A stretch of DNA of 32,000 nt from Bellilinea caldifistulae (lineage in GTDB: Bacteria > Chloroflexota > Anaerolineae > Anaerolineales > Anaerolineaceae). Numbering within the stretch: position 1 is the stretch's first letter; every line of letters begins with the position of its first letter. The notes under the pieces were generated by a model. The model was not told where the DNA came from and searched no databases. It saw nothing but the letters and a program-made list of their open reading frames with translations. Position numbers and translations under genes: made by a program. Shown in pieces: positions 2,721-20,392 of the stretch. The stretch is taken from positions 30,001-62,000 of the forward strand of contig NZ_LGHJ01000015.1 of assembly GCF_001306055.1 (NCBI RefSeq), written 5' to 3'.

Positions 2721-3365
2721 TCAGATTACCCGCTTAAGGCTCTCCAACTTTTCGTCCACTTGCTTGGCAACCTGTTTGATTTCTTTGAGCATTTGGGCGC
2801 CATGATGACCGTTTTTCTGATTTGCGGCAAATTCACGCAGTAAATCATGGAATCGGATGTGGTCGGCCTCCACCGCTTTGAATTCAGAATGAGCGCCAAA
2901 TTCACGTTTGCCCAGCCCGTAATACCACTTTCCCAGCGCACAGTCGGTGTGAGCAGGCACGTCGCTCACACGCAGGGTCTCGGCGCCGCTGGCGGCTTTT
3001 TCCACCCGTTCCACCCATCTCAGATGGGCTTTTTGGAAGGTTTCAATCTCATCCAGCAAGTCGCTGCGGCTGGTTTGCTGCAACTTGAATTGCCGGACGA
3101 TTTCCTTGAGGTTTTGAGCCATCTCTTCCAGAGAACGGGCCGAAGCGGCCACTTCCTCAACCTGCGCGCTCATTTCCTCCGCCGAAGCCGAAACTTCCTC
3201 CACCGCGGCGCTGTTCTCCTCGCTGACCGAGGCAATGTTCTCGATGGCGCCGGTCACCTCGGTGGCGCCGGCAGCCATCTGTTCGGTGGCGGCGGTGTTT
3301 TCCTCGACGACCGCCATCACGGCATCTACTGCTGCTACCAGCTCGGCAGCCGATGCGCTCGCCAT
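2721..3365 (-). CDS. Truncated methyl-accepting chemotaxis-type helix fused to a CZB (chemoreceptor zinc-binding) domain
   Basis: The N-terminal ~95 aa resemble only the C-terminal descending helix of an MCP signalling domain (EQMAAGATEV...SEENSAAVEEVSASAEEMSAQVEEV...IVRQFKL). There is no hairpin tip, HAMP or TM segment. The C-terminus has HLRW-x24-CALGKW-x21-HIRFH, matching the CZB signature. Confidence 0.75.
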   Translation of the reverse strand: MASASAAELVAAVDAVMAVVEENTAATEQMAAGATEVTGAIENIASVSEENSAAVEEVSASAEEMSAQVEEVAASARSLEEMAQNLKEIVRQFKLQQTSRSDLLDEIETFQKAHLRWVERVEKAASGAETLRVSDVPAHTDCALGKWYYGLGKREFGAHSEFKAVEADHIRFHDLLREFAANQKNGHHGAQMLKEIKQVAKQVDEKLESLKRVI

Positions 3366-3485
3366 GACAGACCATGGGTGGAGCCCCCGCCTCCGCGATG
3401 GCTTTGGGGGAGAACGCCCAAAATCTGTAAACGAATTGAAAAGAAACTTTCACAAAAAATTTATGAAATACCTCTTATAAAGCCT

Positions 3486-3491
3486 TATAAT
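3486..3491 (+). promoter_or_regulatory. Candidate -10 box (TATAAT) for the HD-GYP sensor gene
   Basis: TATAAT lies in the AT-rich divergent intergenic region 3366-3554, 63 nt upstream of the ATG at 3555. TGAAAT at 3463-3468 is a weak -35 with a 17-nt spacer. Confidence 0.3.
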
Positions 3492-3554
3492 GAGACTGGT
3501 TTATCTTGTCTGATCAGGGCAAGTATTATCGGAGCGGTGACTGGGAAGAACGAA

Positions 3555-6500
3555 ATGCAGGGGAACATTTTTCTCACCTTAATTCAAAACATTGCCTTGC
3601 TGCTGGCAACCCTGCTGATATTCGATGTCCTCATCCGCCGGGAAGAGATTGGCAACCAGCGGCTGCGGCAGATACTGGCTGGCCTTTTCCTCGGCGGGGT
3701 CGGCCTCTTGCTGATGTCCACGCCGTGGACTTTTGCGCCGGGGATCATCTTCGACACCCGGTCGGTGCTGCTCAGCACCGCCGGGCTGTTTTTTGGGTTC
3801 ATCCCCACGCTCATCGCTATGCTCATCACCGCGGTTTACCGCTGGTGGATTAGCGGGGCTGCCGCCCTGACCGGTATTCTGGTGATTTTCGCAACCGGCG
3901 GGCTGGGGCTGCTGTGGCGTTACCGTCTCGGCCGGCAGGTGGAAAACATCCCGCTCTGGCAATTATGGGTATTTGGGGGGATCGTCCATCTGGTCATGCT
4001 GGGGTTGATGTTCACCCTGCCGTTACAGCGCGCTTTGGAAGTGGTGCGCATCATCAGCCTGCCGGTACTCTTGATCTACCCGCTGGGCAATCTGGCGCTG
4101 GGGGTGCTGCTGCAAAACCGCTTGCGGCGCGAGCGGCTGTGGCACGAGAACCAGCGTCAGATGGAGTACCTGCAATCCGCCTGGGATTTCTTTCAGGAAA
4201 CGCATCCTTCGCTGCAACGTTTTTTGAAAGCCGCCCTGGAGAAAGCCCTGCAGATCACCCGCAGCCGGTTGGGGTTTTTGTTCCTGTACGATGAACATCA
4301 GAAACGGTTTGTGATGAGTGTGGTCTCTCCACCCATGGAGAATGCAGAGGAAATCCCAAGCCGGATGTTTGAAGAAATCAGCGGCGGCATGTGGGCCGAA
4401 GCGATCCGGCAGAAAAAACCGGTCTGGGTCAACGATTACCACCCGCCCAACCCTCTCCAAAAAGAGATGCCGCCCGATCACCCAGTTTTGGAGCGGTTTA
4501 TGGGGGTTCCGGCGCTGGAAAATGGACGGGTGACCGCCCTGCTGGGGGTTGCCAACAGCCCGCAAGCCTATCATCAGGAAGATGCCCTGCGGTTGGCTCT
4601 GTTCATGGACGGTGTCTGGAAAGCCATCAAGCGCTTCCAAATGGAGCAGCAAATGCGCCTGCAATCTGCCGCGCTGGAATCTGCTGCCAGCGTGGTGGTG
4701 ATCACCGACCGGGACGGGCGGATCGAGTGGGCCAACCCGGCTTTTACGCGGGTGACCGGTTACGCGCTGGATGAGGTGCGCGGTCAAAACCCGCGCATCC
4801 TCAAATCCGGCAAGCAGGATCAATCTTTTTACGAAAACCTGTGGAACACCATCCTGTGCGGGCAGGTCTGGCGGGGCGAGATGACCAACCGGCGCAAGGA
4901 CGGCAGCCTGTACGTCGAACAGGCGGTCATTTCGCCGGTGTGCAACGAGGATGGCGAAATTGCCCACTTCATTGCCATCAAAGAAGACATCACCGAACAG
5001 CGCAAGGCCGAAGAAGCCGCCCGCGAAAGCGAGCAGCGCTTTGCGCTGATGGCCGAAGCCGCCCCGGTGATGATCTGGATGACCAAAGCCGACGGGAAGG
5101 ACGGCTACGTTAACCGCGCCTGGCGCGAATTTATGGGCTGCCGCGAGGATGACGACCTGAACCGCGTTTGGGAGGAACGCATTCACCCCCATGAACGGGA
5201 AACACTCCTTGAGGCTTACCGGCAATCCATGCAGTTGTGCCTGCCGTTCATCGCCGAATACCGCCTGCGCCGCGCCGACGGCGAGTACCGCTGGATCAGC
5301 GATCACGGCGAGCCGCGTTTTTCGGCTTCGGGTGAATTTTTGGGGATGATTGGGGTGTTTTACGACATCACCGAGCAGCGCCAGCAAAGCGCGCTGCTGG
5401 CAGCGATCAGCGCGGTGAATCGCGCCTTGACCCGCGCCATCCACCCGCAGGACATGTTCAACCGCATCGTCGGCGAAATCAACCGCCTGATGGAGGTGGA
5501 GGCGGCCATGCTGGAGCTGATTGACCCGCAAACCAATCGGATCGAAATCGTGGCTGCCAGCGGTGTGTGGCAGCCGCTGCAGGGACAAACCGAATCGCCG
5601 CTGGAACATATCCGTCAGCAGGTACTGGAAGAAGGAAAGCCCTACCTCGAAAATCATCAGGGTCATCTGACACAAAAGGGCATCCCTGCGCCGGCCTGCG
5701 GCTGTCAGGCGATTGCCAGCATACCCCTGGAAGTAGATTATCAGAATCTCGGCATCCTGACGATTGGCAGTTATCAGGCTATCTCGCCGGAAAAGGTGAA
5801 CTTGCTGCAGGGGATTGGCGAAGTGGTTGCCAGCGTCATCTACCGTGACGAACTGTACCGGCGCATCGAGCAAAATGCCTCCCGACTGGGCTCACTGCGC
5901 ATCATTGACACTTCCATCATCGAAGGGCAGGACCTCAAAACCGTCCTGCGAATTGTCCTGGAGCAGACTTCCCACCAGTTAAAGATGGACGCTGCTTCAA
6001 TTTTCCTGTTCAACCCGCAAAATTCGACCCTCGAACATGCCGCCGATTACGGCTTCAAAACCCGTGGGATCGAAAAGACTCTCAAACTGGGGCAAAGCCA
6101 CGCCGGCGTGGCTGCCCTGCAGCGGACGATTCTCACCTACCCCGACCTGCCGGCAACCCGCGATGAAATTGCGGCTTACCTGCTGGATGAAGAGGGCTTC
6201 CGCTTTCAAGCGGCGGCGCCGCTGGTCTCCAAAGGCGACCTGATCGGGGTGTTGGAATTGTTTGCGCGGCGTGATTTTCAGCCGAATGATGACTGGGTCA
6301 GTGATTTGCAGACCTTCGCGGATCAGGCAGCCATCGCCATCAACAACATCCAAAACTTTGTCGCCTTGCAAAACTCCAACCGCGAACTGCAAACGGCTTA
6401 TGAAGCCACCATCGAGGGCTGGTCACGCGCCATGGACCTGCGCGATCATGAAACCGAAAATCACACCCTGCGGGTGACGGATCTGACCCTGCGGCTGGCG

Positions 6501-6962
6501 CGCGCGATGGGCGTCCGCGAAGAGGAATTGATTCACTATCGGCGCGGCGCGCTGCTGCACGATATCGGAAAACTGGGCGTGCCGGATGCCATCCTGCAAA
6601 AAGCCGGTGCTTTGGACGATGACGAATGGCTGCTGATGCGCCAGCACCCGATTTATGCCTACCAGATGCTCTATCCGATTGAATACCTGCGGCCGGCGAT
6701 CGAGATTCCCTACTGCCATCACGAAAAATGGGACGGAACGGGTTACCCGCGCGGCTTGAAAGGCGAGGAGATCCCGCTGGCGGCGCGGATATTTGCGGTG
6801 GTGGATGTGTTCGATGCGCTGACCTCCGACCGGCCCTACCGCCGGGCATGGAGTATTCGCGAGGCGCTGGACTACATCAAGGAGCAGTCCGGTCAGCATT
6901 TCGACCCGCAGGTGGTGGAAGCGTTTTTGCGGCTGTACGGCACTGGCTCGTTGAAGATTTAA
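3555..6962 (+). CDS. Multidomain membrane sensor with C-terminal HD-GYP domain (predicted c-di-GMP phosphodiesterase): 5TMR-LYT, GAF, PAS, PAS, GAF, GAF, HD-GYP
   Basis: The track ORF 2847-6962 begins antisense to the CZB gene; a realistic start is the ATG at 3555 (MQGNIFLTLIQ...). 5TMR-LYT motif GIIFDTRSVLLSTAGLFFG (about 3555-4130). PAS regions at about 4660-5010 and 5040-5385 (VVVITDRDGRIEWANPAF; MIWMTKADG). GAF-like regions at about 4150-4640, 5400-5860 and 5880-6370. HD-GYP region: HTLRV...ALLHDIGKLGVP...HHEKWDGTGYPRGL (6718-6760)...FDALTSDRPYR. Confidence 0.88.
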   Translation: MQGNIFLTLIQNIALLLATLLIFDVLIRREEIGNQRLRQILAGLFLGGVGLLLMSTPWTFAPGIIFDTRSVLLSTAGLFFGFIPTLIAMLITAVYRWWISGAAALTGILVIFATGGLGLLWRYRLGRQVENIPLWQLWVFGGIVHLVMLGLMFTLPLQRALEVVRIISLPVLLIYPLGNLALGVLLQNRLRRERLWHENQRQMEYLQSAWDFFQETHPSLQRFLKAALEKALQITRSRLGFLFLYDEHQKRFVMSVVSPPMENAEEIPSRMFEEISGGMWAEAIRQKKPVWVNDYHPPNPLQKEMPPDHPVLERFMGVPALENGRVTALLGVANSPQAYHQEDALRLALFMDGVWKAIKRFQMEQQMRLQSAALESAASVVVITDRDGRIEWANPAFTRVTGYALDEVRGQNPRILKSGKQDQSFYENLWNTILCGQVWRGEMTNRRKDGSLYVEQAVISPVCNEDGEIAHFIAIKEDITEQRKAEEAARESEQRFALMAEAAPVMIWMTKADGKDGYVNRAWREFMGCREDDDLNRVWEERIHPHERETLLEAYRQSMQLCLPFIAEYRLRRADGEYRWISDHGEPRFSASGEFLGMIGVFYDITEQRQQSALLAAISAVNRALTRAIHPQDMFNRIVGEINRLMEVEAAMLELIDPQTNRIEIVAASGVWQPLQGQTESPLEHIRQQVLEEGKPYLENHQGHLTQKGIPAPACGCQAIASIPLEVDYQNLGILTIGSYQAISPEKVNLLQGIGEVVASVIYRDELYRRIEQNASRLGSLRIIDTSIIEGQDLKTVLRIVLEQTSHQLKMDAASIFLFNPQNSTLEHAADYGFKTRGIEKTLKLGQSHAGVAALQRTILTYPDLPATRDEIAAYLLDEEGFRFQAAAPLVSKGDLIGVLELFARRDFQPNDDWVSDLQTFADQAAIAINNIQNFVALQNSNRELQTAYEATIEGWSRAMDLRDHETENHTLRVTDLTLRLARAMGVREEELIHYRRGALLHDIGKLGVPDAILQKAGALDDDEWLLMRQHPIYAYQMLYPIEYLRPAIEIPYCHHEKWDGTGYPRGLKGEEIPLAARIFAVVDVFDALTSDRPYRRAWSIREALDYIKEQSGQHFDPQVVEAFLRLYGTGSLKI

Positions 6963-6994
6963 CAAAACTATAAACAAATTCCAAAAAAAGCCTC

Positions 6995-7024
6995 TTGACT
7001 CGAACCCCCCAATTAAGATAGACT
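6995..7024 (+). promoter_or_regulatory. Candidate sigma70-type promoter of the aro operon leader
   Basis: TTGACT (6995-7000), an 18-nt spacer, then TAGACT (7019-7024). CATAAT at 7029-7034 is an alternative -10 with no matching -35. This is the only AT-rich stretch between the HD-GYP stop and the leader ORF. Confidence 0.3.
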
Positions 7025-7055
7025 ATTGCATAATCTCGCACAAATTCTGATTCCT

Positions 7056-7130
7056 ATGCGATTTTTCCCCTGGTTTTACGCCTACTTCTTTTACGGCAAC
7101 GCCGCACGGCTTGCCGGGCGTGACGCTTAA
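7056..7130 (+). CDS. Candidate attenuation leader peptide (24 aa), aromatic-rich: MRFFPWFYAYFFYGNAARLAGRDA
   Basis: Hand translation from ATG 7056 to TAA 7128-7130. Residues 3-13 are FFPWFYAYFFY (5 Phe, 3 Tyr, 1 Trp). It lies 26 nt upstream of an intrinsic terminator and 77 nt upstream of aroH. No obvious SD. Confidence 0.6.
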   Translation: MRFFPWFYAYFFYGNAARLAGRDA

Positions 7131-7155
7131 GGGGAAGGGAACTCATCCACACCTG

Positions 7156-7187
7156 AGGCGGCGCAACCGGCGCCGCCTTTTGATTTT
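7156..7187 (+). terminator. Intrinsic terminator (attenuator) between the leader ORF and aroH
   Basis: AGGCGGCGC (7156-7164) pairs with GCGCCGCCT (7170-7178): 9 bp (eight G-C pairs plus the terminal A7156-T7178), loop AACCG. It is followed by TTTTGATTTT (7178-7187), then the aroH SD GGAGG (7196-7200) and ATG at 7207. Confidence 0.65.
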
Positions 7188-7206
7188 CCTCAACGGAGGT
7201 TGAACC

Positions 7207-15616: not shown

Positions 15617-16664
15617 TGTGCTCTCCCTGGCGTAAACACCACAACGCCTCCGGCTGAACGGCCAGCCGTCCCTGCCAGCCGGCAGGCAAGGCTTGCGGGA
15701 CATGGAAGGACAGGTTATGCCCCCCGCTGGCGAGGGTCAGGCGGTAGCCCTCGCCGCGAAAGATGACATCCCGCACCTCGGCGGTGAAGGTGTTGAATTG
15801 CTCGTCCGCGGATGCGCCTGTCAGCCCGCCGGGGCGGATCAGCAAGGTAACCGCTTCATTCAGCGCGGGTGGCTCGGCACAATCCACGGGGCAAAACACA
15901 CCGATTTCGGTTTGCACAGTGAGCGGCTGGCGGTTAACGACCCGGCCGGGCAGCAGATTGGTCAGCCCCAAAAAACGCGCCACCCACACGCTGGCCGGCT
16001 GCTGAACCACCCGGCTGGGGCTGCCGTCTTGAGCCACCCGCCCCTCGTGCAGTAAAATCAGCCGGTCGGCAATCATAAAGGCTTCTTCCTGATCGTGGGT
16101 CACATAAATGGCCGGCACGCCGCTTTCGTGCAACACCTCGCGCAAAAACTGGCCAAGTTCCTCGCGCAAAGCGCGGTCGAGCGCGCCGAGTGGTTCATCC
16201 AGCATCAGCAGGCGGGGACGAGGGGCCAGGGCGCGTGCCAGGGCAACCCGCTGCTGCTCGCCGCCGGAGAGGTCGGTTACCCGTCGGTCGGCAAATTGAT
16301 TGAGGTTGACGCGCCGCAGCACTTCCTGCACACGCTGTTCGATCTGGGCGGGTGGCAGGTTTTGCATGCGCAGCCCAAAAGCCACATTCTGGGCAACGCT
16401 GCGGTGAGGAAAGAGGGCGTAATCCTGGAACATCAGTCCAAAGCGGCGCTCATGCACCGGCACGCCGCGCAAGTCATGGCCTTCCCACAGCACCCGTCCG
16501 CTTTCGGCCTCTTCCAGCCCGGCGATGATGCGCAGCAGCGTGCTCTTGCCGCTGCCGGAAGCCCCCAGCAGGCAAACCGTTTCCCCCGCGCCGACTTCAA
16601 ACGAAACCCCGCGCAGCAGCGGCTTGCCTTCGTAATGTTTGTGGATGTTTTCGACGGTGAGCAT
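15603..16664 (-). CDS. thiQ: ABC transporter ATP-binding protein, thiamine-import type
   Basis: MLTVENIHKHY..., Walker [12 protein letters not shown], signature LSGGEQQRVALARAL, Walker B LLMLDEP, plus a C-terminal TOBE-like region. The real start is the ATG at 16664 (the track ORF is extended to 16754). Assignment rests on context with thiB/thiP. Confidence 0.8.
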   Translation of the reverse strand: MLTVENIHKHYEGKPLLRGVSFEVGAGETVCLLGASGSGKSTLLRIIAGLEEAESGRVLWEGHDLRGVPVHERRFGLMFQDYALFPHRSVAQNVAFGLRMQNLPPAQIEQRVQEVLRRVNLNQFADRRVTDLSGGEQQRVALARALAPRPRLLMLDEPLGALDRALREELGQFLREVLHESGVPAIYVTHDQEEAFMIADRLILLHEGRVAQDGSPSRVVQQPASVWVARFLGLTNLLPGRVVNRQPLTVQTEIGVFCPVDCAEPPALNEAVTLLIRPGGLTGASADEQFNTFTAEVRDVIFRGEGYRLTLASGGHNLSFHVPQALPAGWQGRLAVQPEALWCLRQGEHNGDD

Positions 16665-16693
16665 GGTGTTTTGTTTATACCATGATTGTTTTC

Positions 16694-18436
16694 TCAGAGG
16701 GAGCGTTCCTCCGGCAGGCGTACACGCTCCAACAAGGCAATGCCCAGCCCGCAAACCAGCAGCAAGAGAGTGGACATGGCCAGGGCCTGTCCGTAATTCA
16801 AGCCGCCGGGCTGGCTGATGAAGCGGAAAATCGCCACTGGCAGGGTTGGGTATTCGGGGCGCGCCAGAAAACTGGTAGCGCCGAACTCCCCCAGAGAGAT
16901 GGTAAAAGAAAAGATGGCCGCCACCAGCGCCGCCCGCGCCAGGATGGGCAAATCCACCTCTAACCAGACGCGTAAAGGTGAAGCGCCCAGCACGGCGGCT
17001 GCCTGACGCAGGTTGAGCGGGATTGAATTCAACACCGGCGTGAGGGTGCGCACGACGAACGGAAACGCTACCAGACTGTGGGCAATCGGTATCAAGAGGG
17101 GAAAGGAGCGCGCTTCCAGCGGCGGGCGGTTGAAGGTGAGGATGAAACCCAGGCCCAAGGTAACCGCCGAAGCCCCCAGCGGCAGCATCAGCAGCGGGTC
17201 GAGCAGACGGTTGAGCGGCGAGCGGCGGCTGAGCGCAGCCGCGGCCGGCAAACCCAGAGCGAGCGAAATGCCCACCGTCAGGCCGGCGTAAAGCAGCGAA
17301 TTGCGGGCGGCCTCAATCGGCGGCACGTAGAACAGCGAACCGCGGCGGTTGACGAACAGCTCGCGGTAGTAATCAAGGGTCAGGCCGCTTTCAAACCCGC
17401 CGCGCTGACCGCGTGCCGGTTCGAGGCGCGCCACCGAACGAGCGGCCAGCGCCGTCAGCGGCAGCACCAGCAGGGTAAATAACACCAGCACCACCCCTCC
17501 GACCAGCAATTTTTGACGCAGGGAGACCGGCGCAGCCGCACCCTCGCCGTGCAGGCGCGGGGTGAGCGGAATGTTCAGGCGCGAGGCAACCCGCGTATAG
17601 ACCACCGTCAACAGCAGGGTGCAGAGCAGCTGCACCAGCGAAAGCAGCCCGGCCAGCGGCAGGTTGAGCAGATGCAGTGCCTGAATGTAAATTTCGACCT
17701 CCAGCGTGGCGTAGCGCGCCCCGCCCAGCAGCAAAATCACCCCAAAACTGGTAAAGTCGAACAGAAAGACCAGCAAGGCGGCTGCCAGCAGCGAAGGCCT
17801 GAGCAGCGGTAGCGTGACTTCGCGGAAAGCGCGCCAGGGTGAGGCGCCCAGCACCCGCGCCGCCGCTTCCAGGCGCGGGTCGAGTTGTTCCCAGGCGCTG
17901 CCCACCACCCGCAGGATGATGGTGGTGTTGTAAAACACGTGCGCCAGCAAAATTGCCGCCAGCGAGTTGAGCAGGTTGAACGGCGGGGCGGGCAGGTTGA
18001 GCCACTCCATGGCCAGCAGGTTGAACCAGCCGCGCGGGCCGATCAGCGCGTTGAACGCCGCCGCAACCACCACGGTCGGCAGAATGAACGGCAGGGTGGA
18101 AAGCAGGCGCAACAGCCGTTTAGCAGGGAAATCAAAGCGGGCAAACACATAAGCGCCCGGCAGGCCGACCAGCACGGTCAGCAGCGTGGAAAGAGCCGCC
18201 TGATAAAAGGTAAAACCCAGGGCGCGCCCGAGCCGCTCGGCAGCAGCCGGGCTCAGCCCATCGGTGATCAATCCCCGTGCTGAGACCGACAGGATGCTGC
18301 CCAGGGGTACAAAGAAGAAAATGATCAGAAAGGCCAGGGGTGCCAGCCACAAAGCCAGCGCCTGCCAGATGGCAGACGCTGGCGGCTGCCCCTCAGGGGA
18401 TCGGCGGGCGGCAGGGGCAGTTGAGAAGAAATTCAC
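16694..18436 (-). CDS. thiP: ABC transporter permease with duplicated (two-domain) architecture, thiamine/Fe(III) type
   Basis: 580 aa with about 12 hydrophobic segments in two homologous halves. The GTG start at 18436 overlaps the thiB stop (GTGA). Confidence 0.8.
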   Translation of the reverse strand: MNFFSTAPAARRSPEGQPPASAIWQALALWLAPLAFLIIFFFVPLGSILSVSARGLITDGLSPAAAERLGRALGFTFYQAALSTLLTVLVGLPGAYVFARFDFPAKRLLRLLSTLPFILPTVVVAAAFNALIGPRGWFNLLAMEWLNLPAPPFNLLNSLAAILLAHVFYNTTIILRVVGSAWEQLDPRLEAAARVLGASPWRAFREVTLPLLRPSLLAAALLVFLFDFTSFGVILLLGGARYATLEVEIYIQALHLLNLPLAGLLSLVQLLCTLLLTVVYTRVASRLNIPLTPRLHGEGAAAPVSLRQKLLVGGVVLVLFTLLVLPLTALAARSVARLEPARGQRGGFESGLTLDYYRELFVNRRGSLFYVPPIEAARNSLLYAGLTVGISLALGLPAAAALSRRSPLNRLLDPLLMLPLGASAVTLGLGFILTFNRPPLEARSFPLLIPIAHSLVAFPFVVRTLTPVLNSIPLNLRQAAAVLGASPLRVWLEVDLPILARAALVAAIFSFTISLGEFGATSFLARPEYPTLPVAIFRFISQPGGLNYGQALAMSTLLLLVCGLGIALLERVRLPEERSL

Positions 18437-19488
18437 CGCAGGACAACCTGTGTCCAGGCTTCGATCCAGGCTTCACGCTTTTCGGCAATCAGCGCCGGGT
18501 CCAGCGTGGCGGGTTTGGCGGGGATTTGGGCATAACGCACAAATTCTTCCGGCAGTTGGGCGTTACGGTTGACGGGAAAGACGAACATCTGCAGGGGCAG
18601 GTCTTCCTGAAAACGCACATCCAGCATGAAGTCCACGAACTTCTCGGCCAGCGCCCGTTGTTGAGTGCCTTTGAGGATGCCGACAAACTCGATCTGCCGG
18701 AAGCACATATTCTCACCCACCAGAGAGGCGGTTGGGGCTTCTTCCAGCGGTTGTTCGGCAAAGATGACTTCGGCCGGCGGGCTGGAGCCGTAAGAGACGA
18801 CCATTGGCTGCGGGCCGCGCCCGGAGGAAGCCGAGAAGTTGGTGTAGTAAGCCGTCTCCCAGTCGTTGACCACCACCACGCCGTTCGCTTTCAACTGCCG
18901 CCAGAAGTCAAGGTAGCCGTCCTCGCCAAAGGCGGCAATCGTCGCCATCAAAAATGCCAGTCCAGGGGATGAGGTAGCCGGGTTTTCAACCACCAGCAGC
19001 CCTTTGTACTCCGGTTTGGTCAAATCGGCCAGGGATTGGGGAAGAGGGAGATTTTTTTCGGCAAAGTAGGCTTTGTCGTAGTTGATGCAAACATCCCCGT
19101 AGTCCACCGGCAGGGCGCGGTTTTGGGGGTCGAGTTTGAAGGCATCCTCAATCTGGGCCAGCAGGGGTGAGTTGTACGGCTCGAAAATTTCCTCTTTCAA
19201 AGCGCGGGAGAGAAAGGTGTTGTCCACGCCGTAGAACACATCCGCCAGGGGAGCGTTTTTGGTCAAAATCGCCTGATTGAGCGCCGAGCCGGTATCACCG
19301 GAGGGCAAAAAGGTCAACTTGACGTTGTTTTCCTGCTCAAAGGCGCGAATCACCTCCTCGCTGGCGGCAAACGAGTCGTGGGTCAGTACCCGTAATTCGA
19401 TCGGGGCGGCCGGGGTTTGCGGCGTACAGGCCACCAGTACCAGCGCCACCATAATGACCAGCAGCACAAAACGGCCAGTTGCTTTCAT
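18433..19488 (-). CDS. thiB: Thiamine ABC transporter substrate-binding lipoprotein
   Basis: Signal peptide plus lipobox (LVLVAC). Collinear by eye with my recollection of E. coli TbpA (not checked against a database): PQSL.DL, TSSPGLAFL, VVSYGSSPP, KPATLDP..I...REAWIEAW. SD GGAGGTG upstream. Confidence 0.82.
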   Translation of the reverse strand: MKATGRFVLLVIMVALVLVACTPQTPAAPIELRVLTHDSFAASEEVIRAFEQENNVKLTFLPSGDTGSALNQAILTKNAPLADVFYGVDNTFLSRALKEEIFEPYNSPLLAQIEDAFKLDPQNRALPVDYGDVCINYDKAYFAEKNLPLPQSLADLTKPEYKGLLVVENPATSSPGLAFLMATIAAFGEDGYLDFWRQLKANGVVVVNDWETAYYTNFSASSGRGPQPMVVSYGSSPPAEVIFAEQPLEEAPTASLVGENMCFRQIEFVGILKGTQQRALAEKFVDFMLDVRFQEDLPLQMFVFPVNRNAQLPEEFVRYAQIPAKPATLDPALIAEKREAWIEAWTQVVLR

Positions 19489-19576
19489 CGGTACACCTCC
19501 AAAAAAAGAATTGATCCAAAAGCCCGGGTGATCTTTTTTTCCGGCAGAGGGGAGGCCGAGAGAAATGCGGCGTTTT

Positions 19577-20236
19577 TTAACCGGCGCTCGACGACCGGCG
19601 GGTGTGCATGCACAACAGACGGCCGGTCAGCAGGCGGATCTCGGCGCGCTCGTCGGTCATCTCGTTGCTGATGCCGCGCGTCCGGTTGGGACACAGCGTT
19701 TCGTGGTTGAGGGCGTACTTCAAGCCGCTGGTCACGATGCCCTTGGTGCATTCGTTCATCGCCAGCAGCGATACGGTATCGCCGGGCCGACCTTCCACCA
19801 CCGCCTGATCGCGAATGATCAGGATTTCTTCCCGTCCGTCATCCAGCCGGATATCCACCCCTTCCAGGCCGGGCATTTCCAGCAGCGCCAGGTTGGCAAG
19901 CGTTTGGTCGAGCCGCCCGCCGAGGGCTGCCACCACCCGCATTTGCTTGAAGCCCTGCCCCAGCGCGTACTGGATGGCCAGTTCCAGGTCGGTTTCGTCT
20001 TTTTCGGCAGGGTGGCGTTCGATTTGGACGCCGGTCTGTTGCAGGGCAGCCGTTTCTTCCGGCGTCAGCGAATCGAGATCGCCGATCAGCAGATGCGGAC
20101 GCAGCCCCAGAGTTTGCAGGTGACGCAGCCCGCCGTCGGCAGCGATCAGGTAGTCATCGGGGCGCAGCCAGCCGCGGACGGCTTCGCCATCCGCCAGTTC
20201 GCCGTTGGCAAAAATCACCGCGCGTGTGTATTCCAT
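19577..20236 (-). CDS. thiN: Thiamine pyrophosphokinase
   Basis: MEYTRAVIFANGEL...DYLIAADGGLRHL...PHLLIGDLDS...EKDETDLELA, plus a C-terminal thiamine-binding domain. The start is the ATG at 20236 (the track ORF is extended to 20278 through the terminator hairpin). Confidence 0.85.
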   Translation of the reverse strand: MEYTRAVIFANGELADGEAVRGWLRPDDYLIAADGGLRHLQTLGLRPHLLIGDLDSLTPEETAALQQTGVQIERHPAEKDETDLELAIQYALGQGFKQMRVVAALGGRLDQTLANLALLEMPGLEGVDIRLDDGREEILIIRDQAVVEGRPGDTVSLLAMNECTKGIVTSGLKYALNHETLCPNRTRGISNEMTDERAEIRLLTGRLLCMHTRRSSSAG

Positions 20237-20239
20237 AAC

Positions 20240-20265
20240 AAAAAACCTCCTCGCCGGTGAGGAGG
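20240..20265 (-). terminator. TPP riboswitch expression platform: intrinsic terminator that also sequesters the thiN Shine-Dalgarno
   Basis: Minus strand: CCUCCUC-ACCGGC-GAGGAGG-UUUUUUGUU-AUG. The 3' arm GAGGAGG is the only SD for thiN. The upstream CUCCCCUCC can alternatively pair with the aptamer 3' GGAGGGAG as an antiterminator. Confidence 0.6.
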
Positions 20266-20287
20266 GGAGCAGCCGCAAGCCGTGTGA

Positions 20288-20385
20288 TTTCTCCCTCCGC
20301 CGGCATTACCCGGATCAGGTTCAGCGGGTCGAGGGCAGCCTCAGCCCTCCTCTCAGCCCGGTGCCCCGGGCTCCCCGTGTTGAAG
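20288..20385 (-). promoter_or_regulatory. TPP (THI-box) riboswitch aptamer
   Basis: Minus strand: ACGGGGAGC CCGGGGCACCGGG CUGAGA GGAGGGCUGAGGCUGCCCUC G ACCC GCU GAACCUGAUCCGGGUAAUGCCGGCGGAGGGAG. It contains the conserved CUGAGA and ACCUGAUC.GG.UAAUGCC.GCG.AGGGA elements and sits 5' of thiamine salvage genes. Boundaries are approximate. Confidence 0.85.
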
Positions 20386-20392
20386 CATCTAT

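Follow-up and report, generated by a model that had tools for sequence, protein, structure and literature searches.

A predicted Phe/Tyr-sensing leader-peptide attenuator ahead of the Bellilinea caldifistulae shikimate operon, with counterparts in related bacteria

The shikimate operon of Bellilinea caldifistulae (Chloroflexota; Anaerolineae) begins with aroH, and the 244-nucleotide (nt) gap that separates this gene from its upstream neighbour raises the question of whether a single switch for the entire pathway lies there. We analysed a 32,000-nt stretch of the genome (contig NZ_LGHJ01000015.1 of assembly GCF_001306055.1, positions 30,001 to 62,000, read on the forward strand), hereafter the window, whose own coordinates are used throughout. 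The original prediction, made from the letters of this DNA, had proposed that a short open reading frame (ORF) rich in aromatic codons and an intrinsic terminator behind it make up an attenuator through which the ribosome would sense aromatic amino acids. This central claim was supported by conservation in relatives, covariation, strand-specific enrichment and folds with a masked ribosome, and we put the probability that the leader is a classical ribosome-mediated attenuator of the aro operon, predicted to sense Phe and Tyr and only marginally Trp, at roughly 85%. The locus combines an ORF between a promoter and the first gene, cognate codons within that ORF, a terminator, an antiterminator that uses the 3' part of the ORF (in silico), two helices (P0 and P1) placed as anti-antiterminators, and a stop codon (7128-7130) at the end of the antiterminator 5' strand, here called region 2.

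Translation revealed that the leader ORF (7056-7130, forward strand) starts with ATG and encodes MRFFPWFYAYFFYGNAARLAGRDA in 24 codons plus a stop codon. As had been claimed, nine of residues 3-13 are aromatic: codons 3-13 (7062-7094) specify five Phe, three Tyr and one Trp, and this run would be the sensing segment. Its richness stands out against the background, as the first reading had also maintained, with Phe, Tyr and Trp together making up 6.6% of the 3279 residues of seven proteins of the window, which has a G+C content of 60.9%. The gap extends from the stop of the upstream gene (6962) to the aroH ATG (7207), its length being as predicted, and the GenBank record of this species (GCA_001050215.2, contig DF967971.1), whose AroH protein is 100% identical to that of the window, has no gene annotated there. 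A consensus promoter scan identified a sigma-70-like promoter within the gap (Table 1), which is nearly identical in L163-L175 (the prefix L denotes the loci compared in this work) and would place the transcription start near 7030-7032. The anatomy of the leader had been described correctly in the original prediction, but this promoter was absent from its list.

Folding of 7030-7210, which had been suggested as a check, gave a structure of -69.3 kcal/mol (z = -4.7), and none of 200 dinucleotide-shuffled sequences was as stable. The intrinsic terminator predicted after the ORF was recovered by a terminator scan as a stem of 10 pairs, eight of them G-C, with a loop of 5 nt and then TTGATTTT; the hairpin alone folds with -20.2 to -20.7 kcal/mol. 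It lies just before aroH, whose Shine-Dalgarno (SD) sequence and ATG follow directly, as had been stated. The terminator itself therefore stood, but the tail quoted for it, TTTTGATTTT, did not, since T7178 had been counted twice; the true tail after a 9-bp stem is TTTGATTTT (7179-7187).

Upstream of the terminator, the minimum free energy (MFE) fold contains two nested helices. P0 is a long-range helix worth -22.1 kcal/mol in the window, and its duplex, computed separately, reached -27.6 kcal/mol (z = -3.35 versus shuffles). It includes the pairing of UUCCCCU with AGGGGAA that had been noticed by eye, which proved to be real and conserved. The local hairpin seen by eye at 7095-7115 was likewise real and conserved and corresponds to P1, the 3' half of which belongs to the antiterminator. 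Region 2 overlaps the 3' halves of both P1 and P0. In constrained folds, it pairs with the terminator 5' arm, loop and part of the 3' arm through four helices (7107-7110:7172-7175, 7113-7117:7167-7171, 7120-7122:7162-7164 and 7124-7128:7156-7160), with a total of -24.6 kcal/mol, and equivalents of the small apical hairpin that caps this structure occur in relatives with other sequences. A different antiterminator had been put forward from inspection, formed by CGCCGC (7100-7105) and GCGGCG (7158-7163). The two are exact reverse complements, but their pairing was rejected as the main antiterminator: it is worth -9.1 kcal/mol against -24.6 kcal/mol, was present in no constrained fold and would be occluded by a ribosome stalling at codons 11-13.

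Table 1. Positions of the leader elements and operon genes in the window
Feature	Position	Strand	Basis and remarks
A-rich element AAATTCCAAAAAA	6976-6988	+	6 nt 5' of the -35 box
Sigma-70-like promoter TTGACT-18-TAGACT	6995-7024	+	consensus promoter scan
P0 5' strand (region 1)	7064-7082	+	long-range anti-antiterminator helix, pairs with 7117-7137; in the MFE fold
P1 hairpin C-GGCAA-C-GCC / GGC-UUGCC-G	7094-7116	+	from the last aromatic codon; -14.6 kcal/mol
Antiterminator 5' strand (region 2)	7107-7128	+	constrained folds; reaches into stop codon 7128-7130
P0 3' strand	7117-7137	+	shares bases with region 2 and the stop codon
Apical stem-loop (7131-7133:7152-7154 and 7138-7140:7146-7148)	7131-7154	+	caps the antiterminator; growing-transcript folds
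Intrinsic terminator	7155-7187	+	stem 7155-7164/7170-7179, loop AACCG, U-tract to 7187
Antiterminator 3' strand	7156-7175	+	terminator 5' arm, loop and part of the 3' arm
aroH Shine-Dalgarno GGAGG; start codon	7195-7199; 7207-7209	+	read from the sequence
aroH, chorismate mutase type I	7207-7575	+	Pfam, gene calls
DAHP synthase (aroF), N-terminal FXD domain	7592-8665	+	Pfam, gene calls
tyrA	8643-9527	+	Pfam, gene calls
aroA	9524-10858	+	Pfam, gene calls
aroE	10855-11784	+	Pfam, gene calls
aroC	to 12965	+	Pfam, gene calls
aroK-aroB fusion	12962-14551	+	Pfam, gene calls
aroQ, type II dehydroquinase	14542-14985	+	Pfam, gene calls

Folding with a masked stalled ribosome, also proposed as a check, gave the antiterminator upon stalling and the terminator with a ribosome at the stop codon or with none; in these folds, the covered RNA began at the ORF start and reached 12 nt beyond the A-site codon's first base. 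In growing transcripts, synthesis of the terminator 5' arm was enough for the lower antiterminator (7120-7128:7156-7164) to pair if the ribosome had stalled at any of codons 4-13, and at a transcript end of 7175 the full antiterminator was the MFE structure for stalls at codon 7 or beyond. When the ribosome stood at the stop codon, the terminator 5' arm was unpaired upstream, and only the terminator folded; with no ribosome, P0 and P1 sequestered region 2 and the terminator folded. At equilibrium, most ribosome positions left the terminator a probability of about 0.9 or higher; an A site on codon 15 lowered it to 0.7, and one on codons 12-14 to 0.0-0.4. Applied to 35 leaders, folding of growing transcripts showed the 5' arm of the terminator mostly paired upstream in 22 when the ribosome stood on the last aromatic codon, in none when it stood on the stop codon and in five without a ribosome. 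With equilibrium folding of full-length leaders alone, no more than about half of the relatives switched, so that folds of truncated transcripts were needed.

In the proposed switch, transcription from the promoter at 6995-7024 would yield a leader RNA encoding the 24-residue peptide. With charged Phe- and Tyr-tRNA plentiful, the ribosome would reach the UAA at 7128-7130 and cover region 2 (7107-7128), upon which the terminator (7155-7179 plus the U-tract) would fold and the polymerase would stop before aroH. With charged Phe- or Tyr-tRNA scarce, the ribosome would stall in the aromatic run and keep P0 (7064-7082 with 7117-7137) open, while its leading edge would melt the 5' half of P1, most effectively at codons 10-13. 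The freed region 2 would then pair with 7156-7175 before the terminator can form, giving read-through into aroH, aroF, tyrA, aroA, aroE, aroC, aroKB and aroQ. If the leader were not translated, P0 and P1 would hold region 2 and the terminator would form. The exact helices and the choice of codons 10-13 as the most effective stall sites are rather probable. Translation of the leader, coupling between ribosome and polymerase and a response to aromatic supply are what we infer from these patterns.

The helices were then compared in an unfitted MAFFT alignment (A3) of 18 sequences from the alignable subfamily. In the terminator, 91% of cells were paired, with compensatory changes at seven of the 10 pairs. 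The outer stem of P1 was invariant, and its inner stem took the forms GCC/GGC, GCU/GGC, UCC/GGA, CCGG/CCGG or CCGA/UCGG; RNAalifold independently returned the P1 outer stem and the terminator. Because this alignment does not bring the P1 inner stem of the Bellilinea group into register with that of the others, the value of 69% paired is an underestimate. The antiterminator columns were 80.3% paired, compared with 31-51% when slid by one to three columns, and none of 500 shuffles reached the observed value; within them, pair 43:107 alternates between G-C (eight sequences) and U-A (six sequences).

All 18 MFE folds followed the same plan, in which P0 joins the early ORF to the ORF 3' end and stop codon and encloses the unpaired aromatic run and P1, P1 starts at the Gly codon after the last aromatic codon, and the terminator comes next. 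The sequences of the P0 strands differ between relatives, and the mean z of the P0 duplexes was -1.95. P0 was not recovered from the alignment by MAFFT and RNAalifold; the 5' parts of the ORFs do not align, so it was missed there and was examined sequence by sequence.

Comparison of the upstream regions of orthologous operons, which had also been asked of the data, confirmed that the mini-ORF and terminator are conserved in relatives. We collected 160 loci with relatives of the DAHP synthase from genome and metagenome collections, 161 with the window, and scanned 1.6 kilobases (kb) upstream for ORFs of 10-45 codons with at least six Phe, Tyr or Trp in 12 residues and a hairpin plus T-run within 130 nt. 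The unit was present in 27 of the 161 loci. Among loci above 50% G+C, 21 instances occurred in 155 kb of upstream sense sequence and none on the reverse complement of the same DNA; the corresponding counts were none in 388 kb of downstream sense and three in 388 kb of downstream antisense sequence. Almost all loci labelled Chloroflexota or Anaerolineae were positive (L001, L004, L007, L010, L011, L013, L019, L030, L057 and L077). L002 has a weaker run, AAFAFYFG, that lies under the scan threshold, and was found independently by a covariance model (E = 9e-4).

The best identities in the DAHP synthase database scans were 71-75%, and closer relatives were reached only through exact look-ups of AroH homologues. 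Nine such relatives, with AroH 69-87% identical, keep an ORF rich in aromatic codons at this position; among their leaders are MRLFPFFYAYYFYGKAARLAGRNA, MRFTPWFYACYFYGNAARPAGRNA and MRSMPLFYALYFYYGNAARLAGRNA as well as MRTITFCFPIYYYYGNPRGFAGPGVS, MTLVYCSFRYYDYGAPPTAAGGRA and MRTNTFSRFYFWYYYYGYRASAAVGGA. Together with more than 25 distant loci, these nine make up the set of homologous leader ORFs. Over 35 leaders, the aromatic totals were 105 Phe, 125 Tyr and 25 Trp. Phe and Tyr interchange, and TTT alternates with TTC and TAC with TAT, while the frame of start codon, run and stop inside region 2 is always kept. The gene upstream differs among the closer relatives, encoding a GAF/PAS/HD protein, NfeD, MFS or Wzy_C, and hence the leader is tied to the aro operon rather than to the gene next to it.

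These comparisons bear on the idea that the hairpin at 7155-7187 is the terminator or an insulator of the upstream signalling gene (2847-6962) and that the mini-ORF is a chance frame. The terminator scan found no terminator for that gene between 6962 and 7155, so the hairpin could also stop its read-through; however, a conserved promoter lies between the two, and the ORF and terminator remain attached to the aro operon where the neighbour on that side encodes NfeD, MFS, Wzy_C or another protein. Nor does a run that is strand-specific, kept across phylum-level divergence and aromatic at nine of 11 positions against a background of 6.6% look like a chance frame. The comparative data already largely refute this explanation, which we regard as very improbable.

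Conservation of the ORF in many genomes would also be expected if it encoded a functional small hydrophobic peptide, such as a membrane or signalling micro-protein, instead of a sensor. The peptide sequences are, however, not conserved beyond their aromatic richness, the ORF is always linked to DAHP synthase operons, and a terminator always follows whose 5' arm can pair with the ORF 3' end. The clearest case is the pair L084 (1821-1901) and L013 (946-1023), which share the nucleotides CGGTTGCCGTTGG(C/T)GGCGCTTAAG and read them in different frames after the aromatic run, the stop codon of L084 lying 4 nt further downstream than that of L013. This frame difference with retained nucleotides indicates that the ORF tail is selected as RNA and not as peptide, and a functional micro-protein is the least credible of the alternatives.

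A leader attenuator read by a ribosome also had to be weighed against the same switch set by another sensor, be it T-box-like, a metabolite riboswitch or a TRAP- or PyrR-type protein, with the ORF incidental. The conserved structured RNA (P0, P1 and the conserved GGCGGCGCUUAAG) and the missing SD sequence would fit such a sensor. The Rfam scan that had been suggested for leader models found no relevant family: the whole window at gathering thresholds gave no match in the leader, and 6960-7260 at E up to 10 gave only spurious matches to TUG1_4 and PreQ1-III. Neither scan matched the amino-acid leaders (Trp, Phe, His, Leu, Thr and leu/phe), the T-box model (RF00230) had no match in the leader, and riboswitch and protein-binding leader models were covered by the same search of 6960-7260 with no relevant match. 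The distance of about 125 nt from the inferred start to the terminator is too short for a T-box, and the sequence contains no (G/U)AG repeat arrays. Across the family, it is the class of amino acid that is conserved and not the nucleotides, and the reading frame is always kept. A non-ribosomal sensor is accordingly improbable, if somewhat less so than the two preceding explanations.

Several observations weigh against ribosome-mediated attenuation as set out above. The leader AUG has no SD sequence and the inferred 5' untranslated region is about 25 nt, so translation of the leader ORF is assumed; this caveat had been raised at the outset, was confirmed and remains a real one. To our knowledge, no transcription-translation coupling is known from Chloroflexota. 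Thirteen of the 35 leaders were without the switch in the simple MFE test. In full-length RNA at equilibrium, the antiterminator has the advantage for stalls at codons 12-14 alone, and with stalls at codons 6-10 P1 plus the terminator is favoured by 3-7 kcal/mol, depending on the footprint, so that the model needs kinetic trapping. Double changes in the antiterminator occur at two pairs only, its covariation being modest because most columns are simply conserved, and in L173 and L175 P0 was no better than shuffles.

On the question of initiation, the Bellilinea group has the end of the -10 box 31-32 nt before the AUG, without an SD sequence. In L001, L013, L090, L084, L011, L030 and L036, the -10 box ends only 6-12 nt ahead of the start codon, which suggests that these leader mRNAs are leaderless or nearly so. 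For Corynebacterium glutamicum ilvBNC, a leader peptide is reported to be made without a ribosome-binding site, as cited in PMC4046766 (its reference 42).

The closest known system is aroR of C. glutamicum, an experimentally supported leader peptide that contains Phe-Tyr-Phe and precedes the aroF (DAHP synthase) operon (PMC11802643, PMC4046766); its source is Neshat et al. 2014, as summarised in PMC11802643, and it had its first mention in PMC4046766. Like aroR, the Bellilinea leader has mixed Phe and Tyr codons and stands before the gene of the first common-pathway enzyme, and relief by stalling is predicted for it; SD-less or leaderless leader ORFs are also known in C. glutamicum. The two differ in phylum (Chloroflexota versus Actinomycetota), in the sensor (nine aromatic codons in 11 here versus one Phe-Tyr-Phe triplet) and in the operon behind it, which here has eight genes covering all seven common steps plus chorismate mutase and tyrA, and the leader described here is a prediction from sequence. 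Compared by description, the two share function and position, and we treat them as analogues and not as one family.

The aroR system also bears on what the Bellilinea leader would report. In PMC11802643, attenuation by aroR is reported to be relieved by Phe limitation and not by Tyr limitation, although the peptide contains Tyr, and any slowed translation on a leader would mimic a stall; the locus could thus be a leader attenuator whose output is not specific to aromatic supply, following general translation capacity or Phe only. In the family as a whole, however, Tyr codons match Phe codons in frequency (125 Tyr, 105 Phe and 25 Trp), they are those closest to P1, e.g. YYYYG in L173, L175 and L178, and the operon contains tyrA. 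An output of this narrower or less specific kind is unlikely, yet of all the alternatives it deserves the most weight.

The Phe/Tyr attenuator proposed here shares with E. coli pheL-pheA and trpL-trpEDCBA the four-region logic in which a terminator competes with an antiterminator and this in turn with an anti-antiterminator, the placing of the regulatory codons immediately before region 1/P1, covering of region 2 by a ribosome at the stop codon, and super-attenuation when the leader is untranslated. Unlike them, it matches no Rfam leader family, combines Phe, Tyr and possibly Trp codons in a mixed sensor, precedes the common pathway and not a terminal branch, has an extra nested hairpin (P1 inside P0) and lacks an SD sequence. 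A Phe-codon upstream ORF, uORFC-13-1, has been predicted ahead of aroF in Acholeplasma (PMC8632094). Like the present leader, it is a bioinformatic prediction of an upstream ORF with an intrinsic terminator beside it, and it is restricted to sites ahead of DAHP synthase; it did not turn up in the Rfam scans and, as compared by description, it differs in having a ribosome-binding site and a U-run coding for at least one Phe and in being confined to Acholeplasma and unassigned environmental sequences. T-box and TRAP systems of Firmicutes and TyrR and TrpR of Proteobacteria also couple aromatic genes to amino-acid or tRNA-charging status, the first two likewise through a choice between terminator and antiterminator, but they sense uncharged tRNA directly or act through a protein, with no translated sensor ORF.

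The arrangement had been thought undescribed. As aroR and uORFC-13-1 precede it, a mixed aromatic sensor before the common pathway is not new in kind, but the part of the claim that concerns Chloroflexota stood: no leader-peptide attenuation of aromatic genes in Chloroflexi or Anaerolineae was found in the searchable literature, outside which most subscription journals fall, so an earlier mention is possible. A 2010 survey knew leader peptides only from Proteobacteria and Actinobacteria and newly predicted them in Firmicutes (PMC2965389), and the RegPrecise survey of RNA regulons covered Chloroflexi with Rfam models only (PMC3766115). As far as we found, the phylum, the density of the sensor (nine of 11 codons), the single switch over a whole pathway and the breadth of the family are new.

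The limits of the family at the RNA level were traced with a covariance model, R1. Its characteristic features are an aromatic ORF with an end that contains GGC-hairpin-GCC and, further on, GCGCUUAAG, and then the terminator, the top of which carries CCAA or CCGG complementary to region 2. The window scores 94 bits, being itself a training sequence. Among L001-L160, R1 retrieved its own nine training loci and one independent locus, the L002 mentioned above, with weak matches to L019 and L011. The model detected no RNA homology for L004, L007, L010, L057 and L077 or for the leaders of other phyla, and for L019 it was weak at best. This reach indicates that the RNA-level family is an Anaerolineae clade and that the leaders elsewhere are analogues.

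Outside that clade, the ORF and terminator lie directly before a DAHP synthase of the FXD type in Gemmatimonadota (L044 2839-2977, L068 2838-2977 and L079 2827-2965), in a metagenome-assembled genome (MAG) of Phycisphaerales (L036 2815-2946) and in several unclassified GC-rich contigs, the remaining loci of this group being L049 (2821-2956), L127 (2335-2473), L142 (2302-2444) and L094 (2326-2446). Two example mini-ORFs from the group are MTTHATSYLAYFTSFWGYSPGSR and MKASDLRYWGWFGGYFYPRTHIAS. Since R1 does not detect them, these leaders are probably independent inventions or highly diverged. Among the loci labelled Chloroflexota or Anaerolineae, L004 (1638-2947) and L010 (1627-2944) have the leader before an AroG-like DAHP synthase (DAHP_synth_1, without FXD) in tandem with an FXD-type enzyme, and the order in L011 (1555-2926) is leader, aroH, pheA (prephenate dehydratase) and DAHP synthase; leaders thus precede both FXD-type and AroG-type enzymes.

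The mini-ORF and terminator were also present in AT-rich loci (L074 1595-1800, L139 2260-2459, L141 941-1115, L151 2266-2440 and L159 96-263), one of which is labelled Phascolarctobacterium. Because chance aromatic codons are common in AT-rich DNA, these Firmicutes-like matches (L074, L139, L141/L151, L159 and L046) are only candidates.

On this distribution, it is fairly probable that Phe/Tyr-rich leader attenuators are a widespread and uncatalogued gate to the shikimate pathway, present in most sampled Anaerolineae and with analogues in Gemmatimonadota, Phycisphaerales and possibly Negativicutes or Clostridia. If the reading is correct, it would be the first evidence of ribosome-coupled attenuation in Chloroflexota, often from SD-less or leaderless ORFs, and would extend leader-peptide attenuation, and by implication transcription-translation coupling, to that phylum and probably to Gemmatimonadota and Planctomycetota. 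One RNA switch would then set the whole aromatic pathway of the poorly studied, hard-to-grow Anaerolineae, on top of the allosteric FXD domain. The mechanism is a textbook one, and no principle would be changed by it. The alignment and model are ready for annotating such leaders in genomes and MAGs, and the leader is a natural part, predicted to respond to Phe and Tyr, that could be a candidate biosensor.

Pfam searches and gene calls confirmed that the whole common pathway, together with chorismate mutase and tyrA, lies behind the leader. The operon consists of eight tightly packed genes (7207-14985, forward strand), most neighbours overlapping by 4-23 nt, and covers all seven common-pathway steps, making chorismate, prephenate and the Tyr branch. 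Scans found no promoter-like site on the sense strand within the operon, and terminator-like sites there did not exceed the shuffled expectation; given these results and the overlaps, the eight genes are most simply read as one transcription unit. A single fusion protein of 529 residues (aroK-aroB, 12962-14551) joins shikimate kinase to 3-dehydroquinate synthase. The DAHP synthase (7592-8665) has the N-terminal ferredoxin-like FXD domain of Thermotoga-type enzymes. Enzymes of this type are subject to allosteric feedback, and the domain means that the pathway is probably under such feedback besides the attenuator.

A second layer of control may lie upstream of the promoter. The A-rich element AAATTCCAAAAAA occurs once in the window and is kept in L163-L175, the relatives of Bellilinea, as well as in L001, which is more distant, despite their differing upstream genes; on this conservation it may serve as an UP element or bind a regulator, and would in that case add to the control exerted by the leader. 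The gene upstream of it (2847-6962, forward strand) encodes a signalling protein of 1371 residues, in which a 5TM-LYT membrane module occurs together with three GAF domains, two PAS domains and one HD domain (HD-GYP-like, HD_5).

Elsewhere in the window, a thiamine pyrophosphate (TPP) riboswitch was identified at 20274-20387 on the reverse strand with 62.1 bits, above the Rfam gathering score. It is located directly upstream of a thiamine pyrophosphokinase gene (19577-20278, reverse strand), which is followed on the same strand by the genes of an ABC importer, namely a binding protein (18433-19488), a permease (16694-18436) and an ATPase (15603-16754). The genes from 15603 to 20278 on the reverse strand look like a thiamine salvage and uptake operon.

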